Sequence record: MN850576.1
Source of the DNA: Escherichia phage ime
DNA: 64,000 nucleotides
Strand: one strand, 5' to 3'
Shown here: positions 5,359 to 49,906 of the stretch, one piece after another
How the letters are laid out: every line of letters begins with the position of its first letter
Numbering within the stretch: the stretch's first letter is position 1
Position numbers and translations under genes: made by a program
The notes under the pieces: generated by a model
Databases searched by the model: none
The model's input: only the letters and a program-made list of their open reading frames with translations
Told to the model about the DNA's origin: nothing

Positions 5359-5435
5359 TGGTCTCCACGGAGTGATTCGAACACTCGACCTCCTGATCCC
5401 AAATCAGGCGCTCTACCAAGCTGAGCTACGCGGAG
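5359..5435 (-). tRNA. tRNA-Pro (anticodon TGG)
   Basis: Manual cloverleaf: C1-G72 acceptor (typical of Pro), D-arm TAGCTCAGCTTGGTAGAGC, anticodon stem CCTGA/TCAGG with loop TTTGGGA, T-loop TTCGAAT, encoded CCA. Confidence 0.85.
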
Positions 5436-5446
5436 TATTTATTATT

Positions 5447-5521
5447 TGGTGGCCCTGGGTGGAATTGAACCACCGTCTGGCGATTATGAGTCGCTTGCTT
5501 GAACCTTCCAGCTACAGGGCC
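5447..5521 (-). tRNA. tRNA-Met (anticodon CAT; elongator-type or Ile-CAT not distinguishable)
   Basis: Manual fold: acceptor GGCCCTG/CAGGGCC, anticodon loop CTCATAA, T-arm GGTGG-TTCAATT-CCACC, encoded CCA; G1-C72 pair argues against initiator. Confidence 0.75.
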
Positions 5522-5522
5522 A

Positions 5523-5598
5523 TGGTGCTGATGGCAGGACTTGAACCTGCAACCTATTGATTACAAATCAATTGCACTACCAATTGTGCTACATCAGC
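5523..5598 (-). tRNA. tRNA-Thr (anticodon TGT)
   Basis: Manual fold: acceptor GCTGATG/CATCAGC, D-stem GCAC/GTGC, anticodon stem ATTGA/TCAAT loop TTTGTAA, T-arm GCAGG-TTCAAGT-CCTGC, CCA. Confidence 0.85.
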
Positions 5599-5603
5599 AA
5601 AAA

Positions 5604-5702
5604 GGTGCTAGGTGATGGAATCGAACCACCTATGTATTCAACGACTACCTCGTCTATTTTCAGGATTAAAAATCCTCGCCCTTGCCAAAGGGCTTACCTA
5701 GC
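5604..5702 (-). tRNA. aberrant tRNA-like element (Lys-TTT-like anticodon arm; about 25-nt insertion in variable region); possible pseudo-tRNA
   Basis: Perfect 7-bp acceptor GCTAGGT/ACCTAGC, D-arm GCCC-TTTGGCAA-GGGC, T-arm GGTGG-TTCGATT-CCATC, anticodon arm AGGA-TTTTTAA-TCCT; about 30 nt between anticodon and T arms; CC but no terminal A encoded. Confidence 0.4.
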
Positions 5703-5800
5703 TCAGTATGTTGACCATGTTGCTAGTCGGCGATGACGACTGTAACATTTGATAATCCGGTTCTGCTTCCGGCTTTCGCTTAATTACAAGGTCAACAATA

Positions 5801-5891
5801 TGGCTGAGGGTAATGGAATCGAACCATCATCAAGTCATCCTCAACGGGACGGTTTTCAAGACCGCTTGAGCACCATTGCTCCCTACCCTCA
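5801..5891 (-). tRNA. tRNA-Ser (anticodon TGA), type II with long variable arm
   Basis: Manual fold: acceptor TGAGGGT/ACCCTCA, anticodon stem GCGGT/ACCGT loop CTTGAAA, long variable arm, T-loop TTCGATT, encoded CCA; 91 nt. Confidence 0.8.
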
Positions 5892-6005
5892 TTTATAAAC
5901 AATACTGATAATGACACTGATTTTCGAGCAGTTAGTGACTAGTATAAACGACGATAAATATCAATGCCATTATCTGTATGATTTATGCATTTAAAACTAT
6001 AAATT

Positions 6006-6092
6006 TGGTGGGGAGTGGTGGAGTCGAACCACCCGAGTCGCAATGACAATAGATTTACAGTCTACACCGCTACCCCTACGGGATAACTCCCC
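6006..6092 (-). tRNA. tRNA-Tyr (anticodon GTA), type II
   Basis: Anticodon arm GTAGA-CTGTAAA-TCTAT, variable arm about 15 nt, T-arm GGTGG-TTCGACT-CCACC, acceptor GGGGAGT/ACTCCCC, CCA; resembles bacterial tRNA-Tyr layout. Confidence 0.8.
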
Positions 6093-6096
6093 AATT

Positions 6097-6171
6097 TGGC
6101 ACCCCGTACTGGACTCGAACCAGTGTCAACGGCTTAGAAGGCCGCTGCTTTATCCACTAAGCTAACAGGGC
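6097..6171 (-). tRNA. tRNA-Arg (anticodon TCT)
   Basis: Acceptor GCCCTGT/ACGGGGT (2 G-U pairs), D-stem GCTT/AAGC, anticodon stem GCGGC/GCCGT loop CTTCTAA, T-arm ACTGG-TTCGAGT-CCAGT, CCA. Confidence 0.8.
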
Positions 6172-36683: not shown

Positions 36684-36917
36684 ATGAAAGTTAAATTTCT
36701 TACAGATTTAGGGTACCCTTCCTTGGTTGACTGTGTTGGTAAAATTGTGGAAGCAAAACGGCTATCTGCAAACGAGAATGTTGTCCTGGTTAAAGGGAAT
36801 GATTTACTAGCTGCAGGTGCAGAGTCTGGCAGGATCTCTCCTGATTATATGTATTACCTATCTTTAAGTAATCTGCCAGAGCGAGGCGGTAAAGGCCTTG
36901 AAGTTGTGGAGGAGTGA
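36684..36917 (+). CDS. small acidic protein, paralog family A
   Basis: Strong SD AGGAGG; MKVKFL...VLVKGNDLLAAGAES...LEVVEE shares N-terminal, central VKG-DL-AAGA and acidic C-terminal patterns with 40329, 40546, 42418, 42686. Confidence 0.5.
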   Translation: MKVKFLTDLGYPSLVDCVGKIVEAKRLSANENVVLVKGNDLLAAGAESGRISPDYMYYLSLSNLPERGGKGLEVVEE

Positions 36918-40048: not shown

Positions 40049-40332
40049 TAATGAAAAAGATTAACAGTAGTGAAGTAGAGTTTAAACTTGTCGGAAAAGG
40101 CACTTACTGGGAAGTTCGTCAAAAGGTATATTTGTTCGGTATTATTCCCTACTGGTCTAAATTCTACTGGGGAGCTAACGAGTGGGGAAGATACGCCACC
40201 AAATCAATGGCACTTATTGGTATAGCAGAGTACATTGCAGCCCGAGATAGGGTTGGAACCACTTATTACTACACTGCTGACGATATTCGTAACAGTGTTT
40301 ACATCCCACAACCGCCTGAGGGAGACCGTTGA
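40045..40332 (+). CDS. hypothetical protein
   Basis: 95-aa coupled ORF. Confidence 0.4.
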   Translation: MIMKKINSSEVEFKLVGKGTYWEVRQKVYLFGIIPYWSKFYWGANEWGRYATKSMALIGIAEYIAARDRVGTTYYYTADDIRNSVYIPQPPEGDR

Positions 40333-40556
40333 TGAAAGTTAAAGTTTTAGATTCAAGCTTCTATATTGGTCAGGAGCCCTTAGTGGGGAAAGTGTTTACC
40401 GCTATCCCTAACGAAGATTATCCTGACCTTTTAAAAATAAAAGGTGCAGATCTTATTTCCGCTGGTGCATCTCAGGACTGCTTTGACAGCCAGTGGACCT
40501 ACAACTTTGCCCTTGGTGAGGATGTAGAGATAGTGGAGGACGAGAATGAAGGTTAA
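40329..40556 (+). CDS. small acidic protein, paralog family A
   Basis: MMKVKVLDSSFYIGQEPLVGKV...LLKIKGADLISAGAS...VEIVEDENEG; first gene of duplicated cassette copy 1. Confidence 0.5.
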   Translation: MMKVKVLDSSFYIGQEPLVGKVFTAIPNEDYPDLLKIKGADLISAGASQDCFDSQWTYNFALGEDVEIVEDENEG

Positions 40557-40800
40557 AATTCTTGATTCTAACGTCTACTTGGGACAATCCTTCCTGAAGG
40601 GAAAGGTCGTTCCTGCGGTATACTTTGAAGGGTTGCCGTGGGATGATCCTGTGCGGCAACATCGCAGTTATGTAGGCCACAACGTGGTGTTTATCTTGGG
40701 ATCAGACCTGATCGCTGCTGGTGCACCGGAATATTATTTCGGGGAAGAATCCTATTATGCCTTTGGGGCAGGGTCAGATGCAGAGATTGTAGAGCTGTGA
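40546..40800 (+). CDS. small acidic protein, paralog family A
   Basis: MKVKILDSNVYLGQSFLKGKV...VVFILGSDLIAAGAPE...AEIVEL; second gene of cassette copy 1. Confidence 0.5.
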   Translation: MKVKILDSNVYLGQSFLKGKVVPAVYFEGLPWDDPVRQHRSYVGHNVVFILGSDLIAAGAPEYYFGEESYYAFGAGSDAEIVEL

Positions 40801-40812
40801 TGGGTAACCGTT

Positions 40813-41211
40813 GTGAAAAATAAACTGTTCAAAGTTACAATGAAAATTCGCGGAGCTTGGAGCGTAAAGCAAGGGCGTATCCCAGAATTTGAGAAAGACT
40901 TCTACGTAGTCTCCACCTCGGAGGAGGCTGCATGCTGGCAGGCTGGCTATGCATATGCAAGAACCTGGTACGAAGGATACCAGACTGGTGGCTATGACGG
41001 AGAAATTATCAGCAAGGGTGTAGAAGAAATTAATGTGTTGACAAGTGAAAAAGTTTTTGTTATAGTGCATCCAGATTCCAGAGTGAAGCATTACTGGAAT
41101 GCCAGAACAAAAACTTGGACACCGTTTGCAGATTCTGCTACACCACTTTTAAACCAGAAAGCTCTTGACTCTGTCCCGAGCTATGGGGTTGTTGAAGAAA
41201 AGCTAAACTGA
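40813..41211 (+). CDS. hypothetical protein, paralog family B
   Basis: VFVIVHPDSRVKHYWNARTKTWTPFADSATPLL aligns with 43018 gene (KFVMRHPHSNIAYYWDVLNNEWTPDLQKATVLTPFL); third gene of cassette copy 1. Confidence 0.5.
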   Translation: MKNKLFKVTMKIRGAWSVKQGRIPEFEKDFYVVSTSEEAACWQAGYAYARTWYEGYQTGGYDGEIISKGVEEINVLTSEKVFVIVHPDSRVKHYWNARTKTWTPFADSATPLLNQKALDSVPSYGVVEEKLN

Positions 41212-41228
41212 AACGGTGAGGTACTAAC

Positions 41229-41519
41229 ATGATTGATTTAGTTCTAGACACTGATAACACCGGAGCGTTTAAAAAGGATGGTGTAACAAGCGTTGACCAA
41301 TCATTCCCTGCCAAGATTGACTCAAAATGGACCTACAAGTTTGATGGAGAGATCTTCGCAAATGATGAGAAGGTTGTAGATGCTGCAGCCATTTTGAACG
41401 CTCTAGGGTACGACCCTGTGAATTCTTTGATCAAGGATCCTGTTGAGTTTGCAGAGTATGTTCGAAAAATGGCAGATCTTGCTGTGGATATTTTAAAAAC
41501 TATCGACAACAATCTGTAA
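41229..41519 (+). CDS. hypothetical protein
   Basis: 96-aa ORF. Confidence 0.4.
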   Translation: MIDLVLDTDNTGAFKKDGVTSVDQSFPAKIDSKWTYKFDGEIFANDEKVVDAAAILNALGYDPVNSLIKDPVEFAEYVRKMADLAVDILKTIDNNL

Positions 41520-41524
41520 AAACT

Positions 41525-41553
41525 GTTGACACAACGCTTCAGATTTAGTATCA
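41525..41553 (+). promoter_or_regulatory. sigma70-like promoter (TTGACA-N17-TATCAT)
   Basis: -35 41525-41530, -10 41548-41553; directly upstream of HPF-like gene. Confidence 0.55.
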
Positions 41554-41601
41554 TTGTTTTCAAAGAGGGTTTGGTTCCCTCTTCTTTAAAAGGAACACGT
41601 T

Positions 41602-41919
41602 ATGCAAATTGAAATCACTGGCAACGTAGAAATCACTGAAGGTATGGTGTCTTTCATTTCCCACAAAATGTCTAAGCTGGAGCGTTTGCATCCCTCTGCC
41701 AACTATGCACGTGTGAGTGTAAAAGTTGAAAATGATCACCAGGAAGTTATGGCGTTCATTTTTGACAATTCTGGAAAAGAAGTTATTGCCAAAGCTAAAG
41801 GCAGTGATGCTTACGAGGCAACTGACCGTATGGTAGATGTTGCAGCACGTCAACTGGCTAAATGCGGTGGAAAGAAAGGTAAGGGGAAAGGCAAAGTAAA
41901 GATTGACTTTGGAGAATGA
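41602..41919 (+). CDS. hpf: ribosome hibernation promoting factor / RaiA (YfiA) family homolog
   Basis: MQIEITGNVEITEGMVSFISHKMSKLERL ... VSVKVEND ... AKAKGSDAYEATDRMVDVAARQLAK parallels E. coli HPF/RaiA along its whole length (from memory); own promoter; Lys/Gly-rich tail. Confidence 0.8.
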   Translation: MQIEITGNVEITEGMVSFISHKMSKLERLHPSANYARVSVKVENDHQEVMAFIFDNSGKEVIAKAKGSDAYEATDRMVDVAARQLAKCGGKKGKGKGKVKIDFGE

Positions 41920-41928
41920 GGTGCTACA

Positions 41929-42030
41929 ATGGGTGTGATCAAGAAATTAGTCCCAAATGTAGAGATTGCATGCTTTGAAATTATGTTTGCAATCGCAGTT
42001 GTAGTTAATGTGTTAGGTTACGGCTATTAA
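41929..42030 (+). CDS. hydrophobic micro-peptide, 33 aa
   Basis: ATG 41929 after GAGGTG; MGVIKKLVPNVEIACFEIMFAIAVVVNVLGYGY; below ORF-track cut-off. Confidence 0.3.
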   Translation: MGVIKKLVPNVEIACFEIMFAIAVVVNVLGYGY

Positions 42031-42056
42031 TATCAAATAATTGAGGAGACCTCTAA

Positions 42057-42326
42057 ATGAAAATTAAATTATTCAAAACTGAGCTGGCAGACAAAAACTG
42101 TGGACTGGTTGAAGGTATGATTGTCGAAGCACAACCAGTTGACTATATGAAGGTGGTTCGTGATGCCCTGGGTGAAGGTTTTGATCTGATGGAGCCAGCT
42201 CTGCGAGAAGATGTTATCGAGATGGCTAAAAAGCACACACCTGAAGGCATGGTGGTGTTTGTTGCACCGGGTAACGGAGAAGAGTTGATTGTAACTCCGG
42301 ATGTGTATGAGATTGTAGAGGAATAA
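42057..42326 (+). CDS. small acidic protein (distantly family A-like)
   Basis: MKIKLFKTELADKNCGLVEGMIVEA...EIVEE; N- and C-terminal patterns as in family A. Confidence 0.4.
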   Translation: MKIKLFKTELADKNCGLVEGMIVEAQPVDYMKVVRDALGEGFDLMEPALREDVIEMAKKHTPEGMVVFVAPGNGEELIVTPDVYEIVEE

Positions 42327-42417
42327 TCCTGCTTGGATTAGCATACTTCCTCGATAAGGAAGGTTTGTAATTATTTGTGGGAAAGGAATCCCAATCTCTT
42401 ACCAGAGGTGATACTAT

Positions 42418-42681
42418 ATGATTGTTTATTTTAAAACTTCAGGTGGATACCCTGATTCTCAAAGCTTGATCGGAAAAACGTGCACAGCATACTCACCTCT
42501 TGATGAGGAGGTAGGCGATATTCTACGAAATATGTATCGGATTGATCCTCAAGAAGCTTTTGATCAAAACCTTGTATTTGTCAAGGGCTCAGACATGAAG
42601 TCTTTGGGAGCATTCCCTGAAGCAGATGATGATGCCGTTTATTCGTTCATGACCCCTTTTGAAGCTATGGTTGTTGGGTGA
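42418..42681 (+). CDS. small acidic protein, paralog family A
   Basis: ...YPDSQSLIGKTCTA...LVFVKGSDMKSLGAFPE; first gene of cassette copy 2. Confidence 0.45.
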   Translation: MIVYFKTSGGYPDSQSLIGKTCTAYSPLDEEVGDILRNMYRIDPQEAFDQNLVFVKGSDMKSLGAFPEADDDAVYSFMTPFEAMVVG

Positions 42682-42685
42682 TAAT

Positions 42686-43018
42686 ATGAAAGTACGCTTT
42701 ATTGGTGAAACAATTCCTGTGCATCTCCGGTCGCCTGAGGATTCTGCAGATCTTGCATCTCAAAAGGCGAGAGGTTATGATAAGAAAGTAACCTCAACTG
42801 ATGTAGTGCTTGAGGCTACTAGTCTACCTGACCCTGCTGCATTCTTTAATCATTATGGGTACTATTTCAGCAATCTGATGAATATCGGTGAGCTTGTGTT
42901 TATTAGTGGTGGAGAGATTGTTAGCAAGCTTGGCGGCGATCCGGATGTCTTTCATGAAACCTGTCCTTTTGCATTTGTGGTAGGTTCAGATGTGGAAGTT
43001 ATTGAGGAGGTGCGGTAA
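42686..43018 (+). CDS. small acidic protein, paralog family A
   Basis: MKVRFIGE...LVFISGGEIVSKLGGDPD...VEVIEEVR; start set at Met 42686; second gene of cassette copy 2. Confidence 0.45.
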   Translation: MKVRFIGETIPVHLRSPEDSADLASQKARGYDKKVTSTDVVLEATSLPDPAAFFNHYGYYFSNLMNIGELVFISGGEIVSKLGGDPDVFHETCPFAFVVGSDVEVIEEVR

Positions 43019-43413
43019 TGGTAAGCCTATACCGTGTTGAGTATAGCTCAGATACTGTATACAACGTAAGAAGCAAAGATCGCAGCGACAGAGTGCAAGA
43101 AATGTATGTTCTTGCCGACAGTCCGTTATCTGCAGCGTTCAAGGCAGGGGCTCTTGCATCTCGTTGGAAATTTGAAGGCGGATCTTTCTATGAAGAAACC
43201 CTTGAAGATTCTGTTGTTATTTCTTCTGTAGAGGTTTCAGATGACTACGAAGGGAAAAAGTTCGTAATGCGGCACCCACACAGCAACATTGCGTACTACT
43301 GGGATGTTCTGAACAACGAGTGGACCCCAGATCTTCAGAAGGCTACTGTGCTAACACCGTTTTTGGCAGATAAGTTCCCACCAGAAGGTAATTTATCCGC
43401 ACTGTTTCAGTAA
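43018..43413 (+). CDS. hypothetical protein, paralog family B
   Basis: Paralog of 40813-41211 (shared HP-S---YW------WTP and A-KAG-A--W-EG segments); third gene of cassette copy 2. Confidence 0.5.
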   Translation: MVSLYRVEYSSDTVYNVRSKDRSDRVQEMYVLADSPLSAAFKAGALASRWKFEGGSFYEETLEDSVVISSVEVSDDYEGKKFVMRHPHSNIAYYWDVLNNEWTPDLQKATVLTPFLADKFPPEGNLSALFQ

Positions 43414-47579: not shown

Positions 47580-47860
47580 TCTTCTCTTTTCTTTTACCGA
47601 GTAATTCGGGTTTTCTGTTCTCTTCGGTTTGAAGGGGTATGGAGATACACCTGAGTGAACAGGGTGAACAACCGAACCATTGGCTATGGCATTAGCATGG
47701 CGAAGCGGACGGGTGACGAAAGAGGGGCCGGAGGACACCAGTCACTGCCATATGGTATATGGGTGATAACCTGAAGAGTCTGAATAAGTGTTTAAGTACC
47801 AGTCAGAGGAAAAGGTGAATGGTAGCCGAAGGGGGAGGGGGGTTTCTTGTATCTTTAATT
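47580..47860 (+). ncRNA. candidate non-coding transcript (unclassified)
   Basis: Promoter-proximal ORF-free stretch with locally elevated GC and G-rich tract (GAAGGGGGAGGGGGG) followed by TTTCTTGTATCTTT. Confidence 0.2.
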
Positions 47861-48912
47861 TGTATATTATGTATACACTTGTAAACCAATCTCATCTGAA
47901 TCTGTTTACCACACAAAGCGGATAGAGACAAATATCACCTATTAAACTTGAATTATTTATAGAAAATACCACAACACCACTTAAGTCTTTGATTTTACAC
48001 ACAAATCCTACAGATATTCAACCTCCATATTTAACATACTTGTAACATATTCCATACTCTACCTGTCTGATCAATCTACCCAACCACATCCTTCATATTT
48101 TCCCTGTCTGTACCACCCCTGCCCCGCCGGGAGTCCCGTCATATCTGGCTTTCCAGTAAATAGCACACCCACAAATATCATTGCCTGAAGAGGGTTTCAT
48201 CCCATAATACATGCCTTACCTGAAGAGCGCTTCATACACCACGTAAATTTTTTAATTGACCTGCAATTTTCCCGTCATGACCCCCCCCCTGCCCCGCCGG
48301 AGAGGTTGGCTTTTCCCACACAGACCTGAAGAGTCAGCCAGAAATATCTGAACAGGTCCAGTTCTGCCTTGTCATGAGCCGTAGCGACTGGAGTGCTGCC
48401 AGGCGGACGGAATGGGAATACTTCTCATTCTTATAATAATTCTCAAATATCGAGGCAGTGAGGCAAATTAATAGGTGAGGCCGTTCACACAGTGGCACAA
48501 CATTTGCAATCTATTTTGTGAGGGTGAATGAGAATACCTATCATTGTGAGAACCTTTATCATTACGGGCAATTTAACATAATACCCATTATGCGCACCAC
48601 TGGCGATACATACAGGGATTGATACCATGAGTTACAGTTTACGCATATAACAATCATATTTCTTACTATTTGTGTGGGATATAGTTAGCAACCAATAGAT
48701 TAGATATTGACCTACAGACTTCCAACCGTCTAGACGTCTAAACGCCCACACACCAAGGGTTATACATACATTACTGAATGTAAACAGGGCCGCAAAAATG
48801 CTACCATACCAGTTTGTAAATTTTTCATGCAGCACTTGACAAAGAGGAGAAAAACTTGTCTGACATAATGTGACCTAACTGACACAACATGACACTTTTA
48901 CACACCTATTAG

Positions 48913-48984
48913 TTTACACACTGGATTGTTTACATTCCTGATTGTTCACATGCTAACCATTTACATGATTGACTGTTTACACAC
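48913..48984. repeat. iteron-like direct repeats (five TTTACA/TTCACA copies, loosely DnaA-box-like)
   Basis: GTTTACACA 48913-48921, TGTTTACAT 48927-48935, TTGTTCACA 48942-48950, ATTTACAT 48959-48966, TGTTTACACA 48975-48984; further copies near 49395-49455. Confidence 0.55.
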
Positions 48985-48993
48985 CGATAATCA

Positions 48994-49251
48994 GCCATGC
49001 CATTCGTTTGCATGACAATAATTATACATGACAATAATCGCACTGATTATAATTAGCATGACATAATATAAAAGCAGGGCAACTATTAGCAGATCTATAG
49101 TTGCCTTGCTTGTTATGTCATGATTAACTAAATACAAGGCAACTATGATCTGATTAATAGTTTGCAGACAAACTATCACGGGGGTGATGGTTACTGCTTT
49201 TATATTATGTCGCGACTCCGTCGCGCCATGCCATTCGTTTGCATAGTTGCC
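48994..49251. repeat. composite repeat: 20-bp direct repeat, 18-20 bp inverted repeat, four GGCAACTAT/ATAGTTGCC copies
   Basis: GCCATGCCATTCGTTTGCAT at 48994-49013 and 49225-49244; ATGACATAATATAAAAGCAG 49058-49077 vs its reverse complement 49194-49211; GGCAACTAT at 49078, 49138 and ATAGTTGCC at 49097, 49243. Confidence 0.7.
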
Positions 49252-49861
49252 TTATTGTTACAGATAAAATAATTGTATTGTTAATTATTTCTTATCTTTC
49301 TATTAGTCATCTAATGATTTCAGTTAATATAGTAACGTACAGTAAACATTAGACGACTAAAGATTTCTCTGCTTATGGTAACCTAACGTGACAATTCCAG
49401 ACTGTTTACGAAAAATGTTGACACCTGGGCCGATTTATGTTATGCAGTTTACACGAATAATTATTTTATGCAGGTATTGACTATTCCGTTATTCTATGGT
49501 TGGAATAAATGCTTAGCAGGCTATAGAATGGCGAGCGTACGTAAATTCTGAGATCTGGCGGCTATAGTTATACTCGATTTTTCACGTAGAAAACGCTTTT
49601 GTAGCTATGTAAGTGTATGACTTATAAAGATTTTTAGTTGTTGACAAGATATTGGAGATGTGCATCAGATTAAATTTTGTGCAATAGCTACATTACGTGC
49701 ACTTTTGGAAGAAAAAACGTGTAAAAATGGCCCTGCTACCACACAATGAAAGATTATGCAATAGTTATTTTATATGTATATTTGTACAGTGTGTGGGATT
49801 AATGGCTAGTCAATTATTCCACTTGCCAGGTAGGGCCGTTTATGGTAGGAGAAGAGCAGAC

Positions 49862-49886
49862 AAAAAGAAAGGGGCCTTTAAGCCCC
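49862..49886 (-). terminator. rho-independent terminator (minus strand)
   Basis: On minus strand GGGGC...GCCCC hairpin followed by TTTCTTTTTG; downstream of gene 49907-50326. Confidence 0.55.
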
Positions 49887-49906
49887 TTGATAATTCAGTT
49901 AAGAAA

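Follow-up and report, generated by a model that had tools for sequence, protein, structure and literature searches.

A Vequintavirus homolog of the short ribosome hibernation factor HPF and its promoter-like upstream region

The bacterial relatives of the phage gene considered here are ribosome hibernation factors of the HPF/RaiA (S30AE) family. The gene, referred to below as the hpf homolog, is an open reading frame (ORF) of 105 aa with an ATG start at 41602-41919 (+), read from the sequence and its translation, in a stretch of 64,000 nucleotides from Escherichia phage ime (MN850576.1; the whole stretch is called the window). E. coli short HPF (YhbH; 2RQL, 4V8H, 6H4N) is likewise a single-domain protein, and the phage protein keeps K22, K25, E60, D69, Y71, D75, R83, K87 and K91. 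The two differ at the C-terminus, which in E. coli HPF reads KHKDKLKQH and in the phage protein is a 17-residue Lys/Gly tail. The 100S structure from E. coli shows R33 and K93 in contact with the tRNA of the E site, and H95, at the C-terminus, stacked on G693 (bioRxiv 10.1101/382572). They differ further in context, which is stress-regulated in the host whereas the phage gene has a sigma70-type promoter-like site, and in outcome, as promotion of 100S ribosomes was not seen for the phage protein (PMC6375957).

E. coli RaiA (YfiA, protein Y; 1N3G, 4V8I) resembles the phage protein in its fold, its presumed binding site and a C-terminal extension past the core, and a further likeness is that expression of the identical protein of phage rV5 gave no increase in 100S (PMC6375957). 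In YfiA the tail points toward the RMF site and is associated with hibernation as 70S, not as 100S (bioRxiv 10.1101/2025.10.07.680626). However, this tail ends acidic (EEVEEE), unlike the Lys/Gly-rich phage tail, and RaiA is 25% identical to the phage protein by BLASTP. Long HPFs of Firmicutes, Thermus and others share the fold in their N-terminal domain, but their C-terminal dimerisation domain is absent from the phage protein.

HPF genes in phages have been listed for rV5, FV3, JES-2013, FFH2, O157 typing phage 14 and Cronobacter phage GAP32 (Mizuno et al. 2019 Nat Commun, PMC6375957). The source genome of the window is a lytic Vequintavirus (an rV5-like coliphage, myovirus), and its 105-aa protein is 100% identical to rV5 gp139/ORF144 (YP_002003641, ABI79209). 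Position, neighbours and an annotated promoter, P144, are also the same in rV5; there is no difference of substance and the window genome represents a further isolate of this genus. A 1.5-kb region surrounding the gene shows 98-99.9% nucleotide identity to many Vequintavirus Escherichia phages (118 matching records), reaching 99.9% in phages nomine and PMBT16. The Pfam domain also occurs in other phage HPFs (Cronobacter phage GAP32, metagenomic viral contigs; PHROG 8990), which belong to large lytic phages; their divergence puts them beyond the reach of tblastn at E<=1e-3, and they cluster elsewhere in the HPF tree (Mizuno et al., PMC6375957), which suggests independent acquisition.

The gene and its promoter are therefore already known: the rV5 reference record annotates both, the gene is annotated in over 100 related phages as well, and there is a publication on phage HPF. 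The novelty implied by an earlier note on this DNA, made from the sequence alone, does not hold. The reference record (NC_011041) names the gp139 product 'ribosome-associated translation inhibitor RaiA' and describes it as 'ORF 144; similar to Klebsiella oxytoca probable sigma(54) modulation protein', while other phage records label it ribosome hibernation factor, HPF or sigma-54 modulation factor. In some records the true hpf gene is mislabelled 'ATP-dependent protease La type I'. Taken literally, the sigma-54 label would make the protein a regulator of RpoN-dependent transcription, which is scarcely credible: its sole support is the historical PF02482 name, 'Sigma 54 modulation protein', with the annotations copied from it, whereas solved structures put family members in the ribosomal decoding centre and no feature of the window ties the gene to sigma-54. 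The family owes this name to hpf lying within the rpoN operon.

The functional question is why purifying selection has preserved, in a strictly lytic coliphage, a relative of a protein that silences ribosomes. Its answer would help to explain how phages deal with hosts that are dormant or starved, and since rV5-like phages, including members of the BASEL collection, grow on E. coli K-12 and pose no difficulty in handling, experiments are feasible. Added here are the retention of three of four shared ribosome contacts with loss of K80, a disordered basic tail in place of the C-terminus that reaches the E site, and a 64% identical ortholog in a sister lineage.

The S30AE core, its tail and its conservation

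Membership of the HPF/RaiA (S30AE) family is secure, given curated profile thresholds, matches to solved HPF structures and the predicted fold. The Pfam profile Ribosomal_S30AE (PF02482) matches residues 3-88 (profile positions 1-83 of 88) with 48.3 bits (E = 1.8e-12; gathering threshold 23.7), and TIGR00741 (HPF/YfiA) scores 45.9 bits over a cut-off of 40.9. In a PDB sequence search the E. coli HPF chains (2RQL, 4V8H, 6H4N) match residues 1-89 with E about 5e-12. The earlier note had identified the ORF as an HPF/RaiA homolog and had proposed a profile search and a superposition on HPF as checks; both bear it out, and the protein strings that it quoted, together with the Lys/Gly-rich tail, are all present in the translation, which ends in CGGKKGKGKGKVKIDFGE. 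BLASTP identity to E. coli HPF is 43% over 88 aa, and the core is clearly derived from HPF and not from RaiA, while the protein is the equivalog of neither E. coli paralog. A Pfam search found no second domain, such as the long-HPF dimerisation domain, in the 105 aa. The protein is thus a Vequintavirus homolog of short gammaproteobacterial HPF with a single S30AE domain. Among phage protein families it is assigned to its own PHROG, of unknown function, with a weak profile match to phrog_8990 (1.5e-6). The parts of the coding sequence are as follows.

41602-41868 (+): residues 1-89, core with the S30AE/HPF fold (PF02482, TIGR00741, PDB match, model confidence about 90)
41869-41916 (+): residues 90-105, Lys/Gly-rich tail GKKGKGKGKVKIDFGE, predicted disordered (model confidence below 50 at residues 90-95 and 97-105)
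41917-41919 (+): stop codon TGA, read from the sequence and translation

An AlphaFold2 (AF2) model built with a 22-sequence alignment has a predicted local distance difference test score (pLDDT, the model confidence above) of 82.3 overall and about 90 in the core, where an earlier single-sequence model was poor (pLDDT 58). Its secondary structure, with strands (E) and helices (H), runs E2-7, H13-29, E33-43, E46-55, E60-67 and H70-89. The best 35 Foldseek matches in the PDB are all HPF, YfiA or pY. The model superposes on V. cholerae HPF (4hei) with a root-mean-square deviation (rmsd) of 1.0 Å and a template modelling (TM) score of 0.91-0.93, and on ribosome-bound E. coli HPF (6h4n_x) with an rmsd of 1.1 Å and TM 0.87.

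The tail takes the place of the K89-H95 end of E. coli HPF and is about 10 residues longer, with a net charge of +3.8 over residues 89-105. As the protein has only 105 aa, a tail predicted disordered and no dimerisation domain, ribosome dimerisation by the long-HPF mechanism is impossible. Compared with an ortholog from a sister lineage (P0004, below) the tail sequence is not conserved, but its length (17 vs 16 residues) and charge (+3.8 vs +2.8) are similar. The tail is shorter in phage Murica, and it is truncated in Murica and APECc02.

Searched by tblastn in a phage genome collection, the gene is intact and 94-100% conserved in 117 phage records and, apart from one bacterial chromosome record, confined to Vequintavirus. 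An exhaustive HMMER scan of 1.84 billion representatives returned just 22 proteins at E<=1e-3, among which the closest bacterial protein has 45% identity, and a word-indexed homolog search returned 5 proteins only, too few to bear on origins. Judged by the HMMER scan, the phage HPF lineage is isolated. The second HMMER match, a repeat protein of 1160 aa (P0006), was set aside as a repeat-driven artefact.

P0004 itself is a protein of 103 aa with 64% identity in a syntenic position. It is carried by uncultivated rV5-like contigs of 124-137 kb (L003-L006, from Logan/ENA), which share the gene order around hpf with the window and about 73-76% nucleotide identity over one third of the region; this sister lineage is not present in the phage genome collection searched. 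Between the window and P0004, the proportion of differing synonymous sites (pS) is 0.79, which is saturated, and that of nonsynonymous sites (pN) is 0.22 in the core; these values indicate long-term purifying selection.

Such selection bears on the proposal that the gene is a passenger, a recent and functionless capture of host hpf that is now decaying. The HPF family is one of host genes, a transfer of phage HPF at a relatively recent date was suggested by Mizuno et al. (PMC6375957), and the truncated tails of Murica and APECc02 could be taken as decay. However, an isolated clade whose best bacterial identity is 45%, with 43% to E. coli HPF, argues against recent capture, and the GC content of the gene (0.421 vs 0.426 for the window) is fully phage-like. 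With the ORF intact in 117 phage records, a syntenic sister-lineage ortholog at saturated synonymous distance and a conserved block at the -35 element upstream, recent host capture was rejected and a decaying passenger is very improbable. Separately, 18 records named as 'Campylobacter phage' (MG0656xx, UNVERIFIED) are rV5-like Vequintavirus genomes carrying the gene at 97-100% identity, and their host label looks doubtful.

Ribosome contacts and possible functions

In structures of hibernating ribosomes from Gram-negative bacteria, the basic contacts to 16S rRNA common to HPF and YfiA are K80, R83, K87 and K91 on helix alpha2, with R83 touching m4C1402, and other HPF contacts are K26/Q29, T53, H55/E60 (to uS9), H62 and K89 (bioRxiv 10.1101/2025.10.07.680626). 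Aligned to E. coli HPF, the phage protein has the following residues at contact positions, including those in the 100S structure.

E. coli HPF K26: phage K25, retained
E. coli HPF Q29: phage R28, replaced by a basic residue
E. coli HPF E60: phage E60, retained
E. coli HPF R83: phage R83, retained
E. coli HPF K87: phage K87, retained
E. coli HPF K91: phage K91, retained
E. coli HPF K80: phage V80, lost
E. coli HPF H55: phage F54, lost
E. coli HPF T53: phage F52, lost
E. coli HPF R33: phage S32, lost
E. coli HPF K89: phage G89, lost
E. coli HPF K93 and H95: Lys/Gly tail, no counterpart

Three of the four shared basic contacts (R83, K87, K91) are therefore kept, and R83, K87, K91, K25 and E60 are conserved across both phage lineages. 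An alignment of the HPF family shows that its invariant or near-invariant positions K22, G58, D69, Y71 and D75, as well as R83, are all kept. From the alignment, the decoding-centre core of the interface appears preserved, with peripheral and E-site contacts lost or remodelled. The replaced contacts suggest that binding is altered and probably weaker than that of host HPF.

The preferred reading, to which a probability of roughly 45% is given, is that the protein is a phage-adapted HPF-type factor that docks in the A/P region of the 30S subunit and brings about RaiA-like parking or shielding of 70S ribosomes with no 100S formation. The gene sits in a block of small, presumably early, genes and would be transcribed by host RNA polymerase in infection. 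Its product would dock as HPF and RaiA do, in the decoding region of the 30S subunit between h30 and h44, where it would cover the A and P sites of ribosomes that are vacant, through the retained K25, R28, E60, R83, K87 and K91. Because K80, H55, T53 and R33 are replaced, binding would probably be weaker and more reversible than that of host HPF. By analogy with the tail of RaiA, the flexible Lys/Gly tail may follow the path of the mRNA and the E site toward where RMF binds, and a RaiA-like outcome would be expected, in which idle 70S ribosomes are parked or shielded and not promoted to 100S. The host ribosome pool would thereby be preserved or controlled for the phage.

Several observations weigh against this reading. 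The protein does not reach the equivalog cut-off for short HPF of the E. coli YhbH type (NF007780, 55.8 bits vs 125) or for RaiA/YfiA (NF007654, 17.6 bits vs 158). K80 is V in the window lineage and T in P0004, and the other six positions listed above as lost or as having no counterpart belong here as well. The tail path is proposed purely by analogy, and the gain for a lytic phage in silencing ribosomes that it needs is not obvious. A further objection is experimental. When the rV5 protein was expressed from pBAD24 in E. coli NM522, its peptides were found in the crude extract and none in purified 70S or 100S ribosomes, and ribosome profiles and 100S levels were unchanged (PMC6375957).

In that experiment uninfected cells were harvested as exponential growth ended, at an optical density at 600 nm (OD600) of 1, and their ribosomes were spun down through a cushion of 500 mM NH4Cl; the authors considered growth phase, stripping by salt or a true loss of binding as possible explanations (PMC6375957). 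Because of the salt wash, the uninfected cells and the end-exponential harvest, the negative result weakens the functional claim without refuting it. The earlier note had read the gene as implying manipulation or protection of host ribosomes, to be abandoned if no ribosome association were found; the sole published experiment reports no association, and the proposal stays an inference. No later functional work on phage HPF was found in the literature, and the LL12 host-factor screen makes no mention of hpf, rmf or raiA.

Mizuno et al. proposed that viral HPF might compete with the cellular factor and so prevent ribosome dimerisation (PMC6375957). In this anti-hibernation reading, transient occupation or perturbation of the HPF, RaiA and RMF sites would keep host ribosomes from 100S or inactive 70S states, or free them, so that phage mRNA is translated in starved or stationary cells. 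Since it shares the fold and some of the contacts, the protein could be a competitor for the site; the loss of K80, H55 and T53, together with the exchanged C-terminus, is in keeping with binding that is weak and readily displaced; and a basic tail longer than that of HPF could clash with RMF, as is thought for the YfiA tail. Consistent with this reading, expression gave no 100S increase (PMC6375957). However, it also gave no 100S drop or change in profile, although little 100S exists at OD600 of 1. Searched by tblastn, the window yielded no companion RMF (with the RMF query used), no second HPF and no other gene related to hibernation. Furthermore, an occupant of the A and P sites is itself inhibitory, and a net waking of ribosomes would need fast off-rates. 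The anti-hibernation reading is doubtful.

Equally doubtful is a form of it that gives the tail the leading part: an HPF mimic that binds the decoding centre transiently while its tail blocks RMF, and that prevents or reverses 100S and 70S hibernation or shields 16S rRNA from host nucleases. Were this HPF-mimic proposal true, rV5-like phages could replicate in starved gut E. coli.

[quoted passage not shown] The protein may thus have left the ribosome for a new RNA or nucleotide ligand. The isolation of the lineage (22 proteins at E<=1e-3, best bacterial identity 45%) and its own PHROG of unknown function are consistent with this, and fold similarity between Acb4 and hibernation factors has been noted (bioRxiv 10.1101/2024.12.30.630793). 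Weak Acb4 matches (E about 1e-2, TM 0.42-0.44) did appear, from the low-confidence model. In the confident model, however, Acb4 falls outside the top 50, where HPFs stand at rmsd 1.0-1.5 Å, and Acb4 (9e4w) has no sequence match at E<=1 in the PDB sequence search; an Acb4-like nucleotide sponge was rejected as the leading idea on these grounds. The decoding-centre contact R83 (to m4C1402) and K87, K91, K25 and E60 are conserved in both phage lineages, and the high-salt wash is a sufficient explanation of the negative experiment. An exapted fold is unlikely, and docking at the 30S A/P region with RaiA-like parking of 70S ribosomes is preferred.

The promoter-like site and the 5' region

The stop codon of the upstream ORF lies at 41517-41519 and is followed by an 82-bp gap to the ATG of the hpf homolog. 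The region reported in the earlier note starts at 41525, one base before the -35 hexamer. The elements of the gap, and a second promoter-like site at the 3' end of the gene, are listed here.

41526-41531 (+): -35 hexamer TTGACA, part of 'P144' in rV5 (sequence scan; NC_011041 annotation)
41549-41554 (+): -10 hexamer TATCAT after a 17-nt spacer (sequence scan; 11/12 match to consensus together with the -35)
41563-41583 (+): 7-bp hairpin AAGAGGG/CCCTCTT in the predicted 5' untranslated region (UTR; -11.1 kcal/mol, z = -0.15 against shuffles)
41590-41594 (+): Shine-Dalgarno (SD) sequence AAGGA, 7 nt before the ATG (read from the sequence; kept in 8 Vequintavirus sequences)
41903-41930 (+): second promoter-like site TTGACT-16-TACAAT with TG, 10/12 (pattern only), overlapping the last codons of hpf

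NC_011041 annotates the same upstream element as 'Sigma70-type promoter; P144', and the method by which rV5 promoters were predicted was described by Kropinski et al. 2013 (PMC3606486). Sites with a match of at least 11/12 number 11 on the (+) and 9 on the (-) strand of the 64-kb window, compared with about 0.95 per strand in 200 shuffles. They are thus enriched about tenfold and their orientation follows the coding strand, from which it follows that the site before hpf would be one of a population of host-type promoters. The block AAACTGTTGACAC, containing the -35, is invariant in nine aligned genomes, eight of Vequintavirus and one of the sister lineage (L003, protein 64% identical). The -10 reads TATTAT in phage A142, and L003 has an extended -10 (TGcAATTAT) at the equivalent place. 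Being near-consensus and intergenic with a conserved -35, the element is classed as a sigma70-type promoter-like site.

The earlier note had called this promoter dedicated to the gene. The site itself is present, conserved and of an enriched class, but its dedication is questionable. A terminator scan called no canonical terminator between hpf and upstream transcription, and past the gene the first terminator-like site of the (+) strand, a weak one, comes only after two further small ORFs (42346-42362). The second promoter-like site lies just upstream of an ORF of 33 aa (41929-42030). The promoter of the hpf homolog is not provably dedicated to that gene. No Vequintavirus transcriptome or transcription start site data were found in the literature.

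The hairpin was considered as a conserved element of the 5' UTR and rejected, since it folds no better than shuffles. It has uncompensated G>A changes in nomo, V18, Murica and A142 and indels in the loop, and is absent from L003. It was also rejected as a terminator, as the terminator scan made no call, and is probably not a conserved functional structure. No Rfam family (such as the raiA motif) matches at E<=1 in 41000-42500. In L003 (3985-4000) the SD is GAGGG directly before the ATG. The window lineage has the same GAGGG followed by an insertion of about 25 nt, which gives rise to the hairpin pairing and the new SD AAGGA.

Neighbouring genes and other features of the window

The small genes flanking hpf fall into two paralog families. 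The first has four members (36684-36917, 40332-40556, 40546-40800 and 42686-43018; BLASTP 1e-4 to 7e-15), two of which are in phrog_5009. The other family consists of two proteins of about 130 aa (40840-41211 and 43018-43413; 31% identity, 6e-8), both in phrog_7379. The neighbouring genes have no Pfam match and belong only to PHROGs without known function. An ORF of 89 aa at 42057-42326 (+) is annotated 'sigma 54 modulation factor' in several GenBank records (e.g. nomine_137, nomo_102). Pfam gives no S30AE match for it, its PHROG (11868) is of unknown function, and the label looks like an error of annotation propagation.

Elsewhere in the window, a seven-gene tRNA cluster at 5359-6171 (-) encodes tRNAs for Pro, Met, Thr, Ser, Tyr and Arg plus one odd gene. 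The latter (5604-5702, 99 nt) is given a 4-base anticodon (atcc) by ARAGORN and scores 35.5 bits as an Rfam tRNA; it may be a tRNA with an insertion or intron, or a pseudogene. At about 47600-49900, between blocks of (+) and (-) strand genes, about 2.3 kb have no sizeable ORF, no tandem repeats and no Rfam family, and 48.5-50 kb is AT-rich (GC 0.34-0.37). This ORF-poor stretch corresponds to the 'non-coding' block of rV5 noted by Kropinski et al. (PMC3606486).

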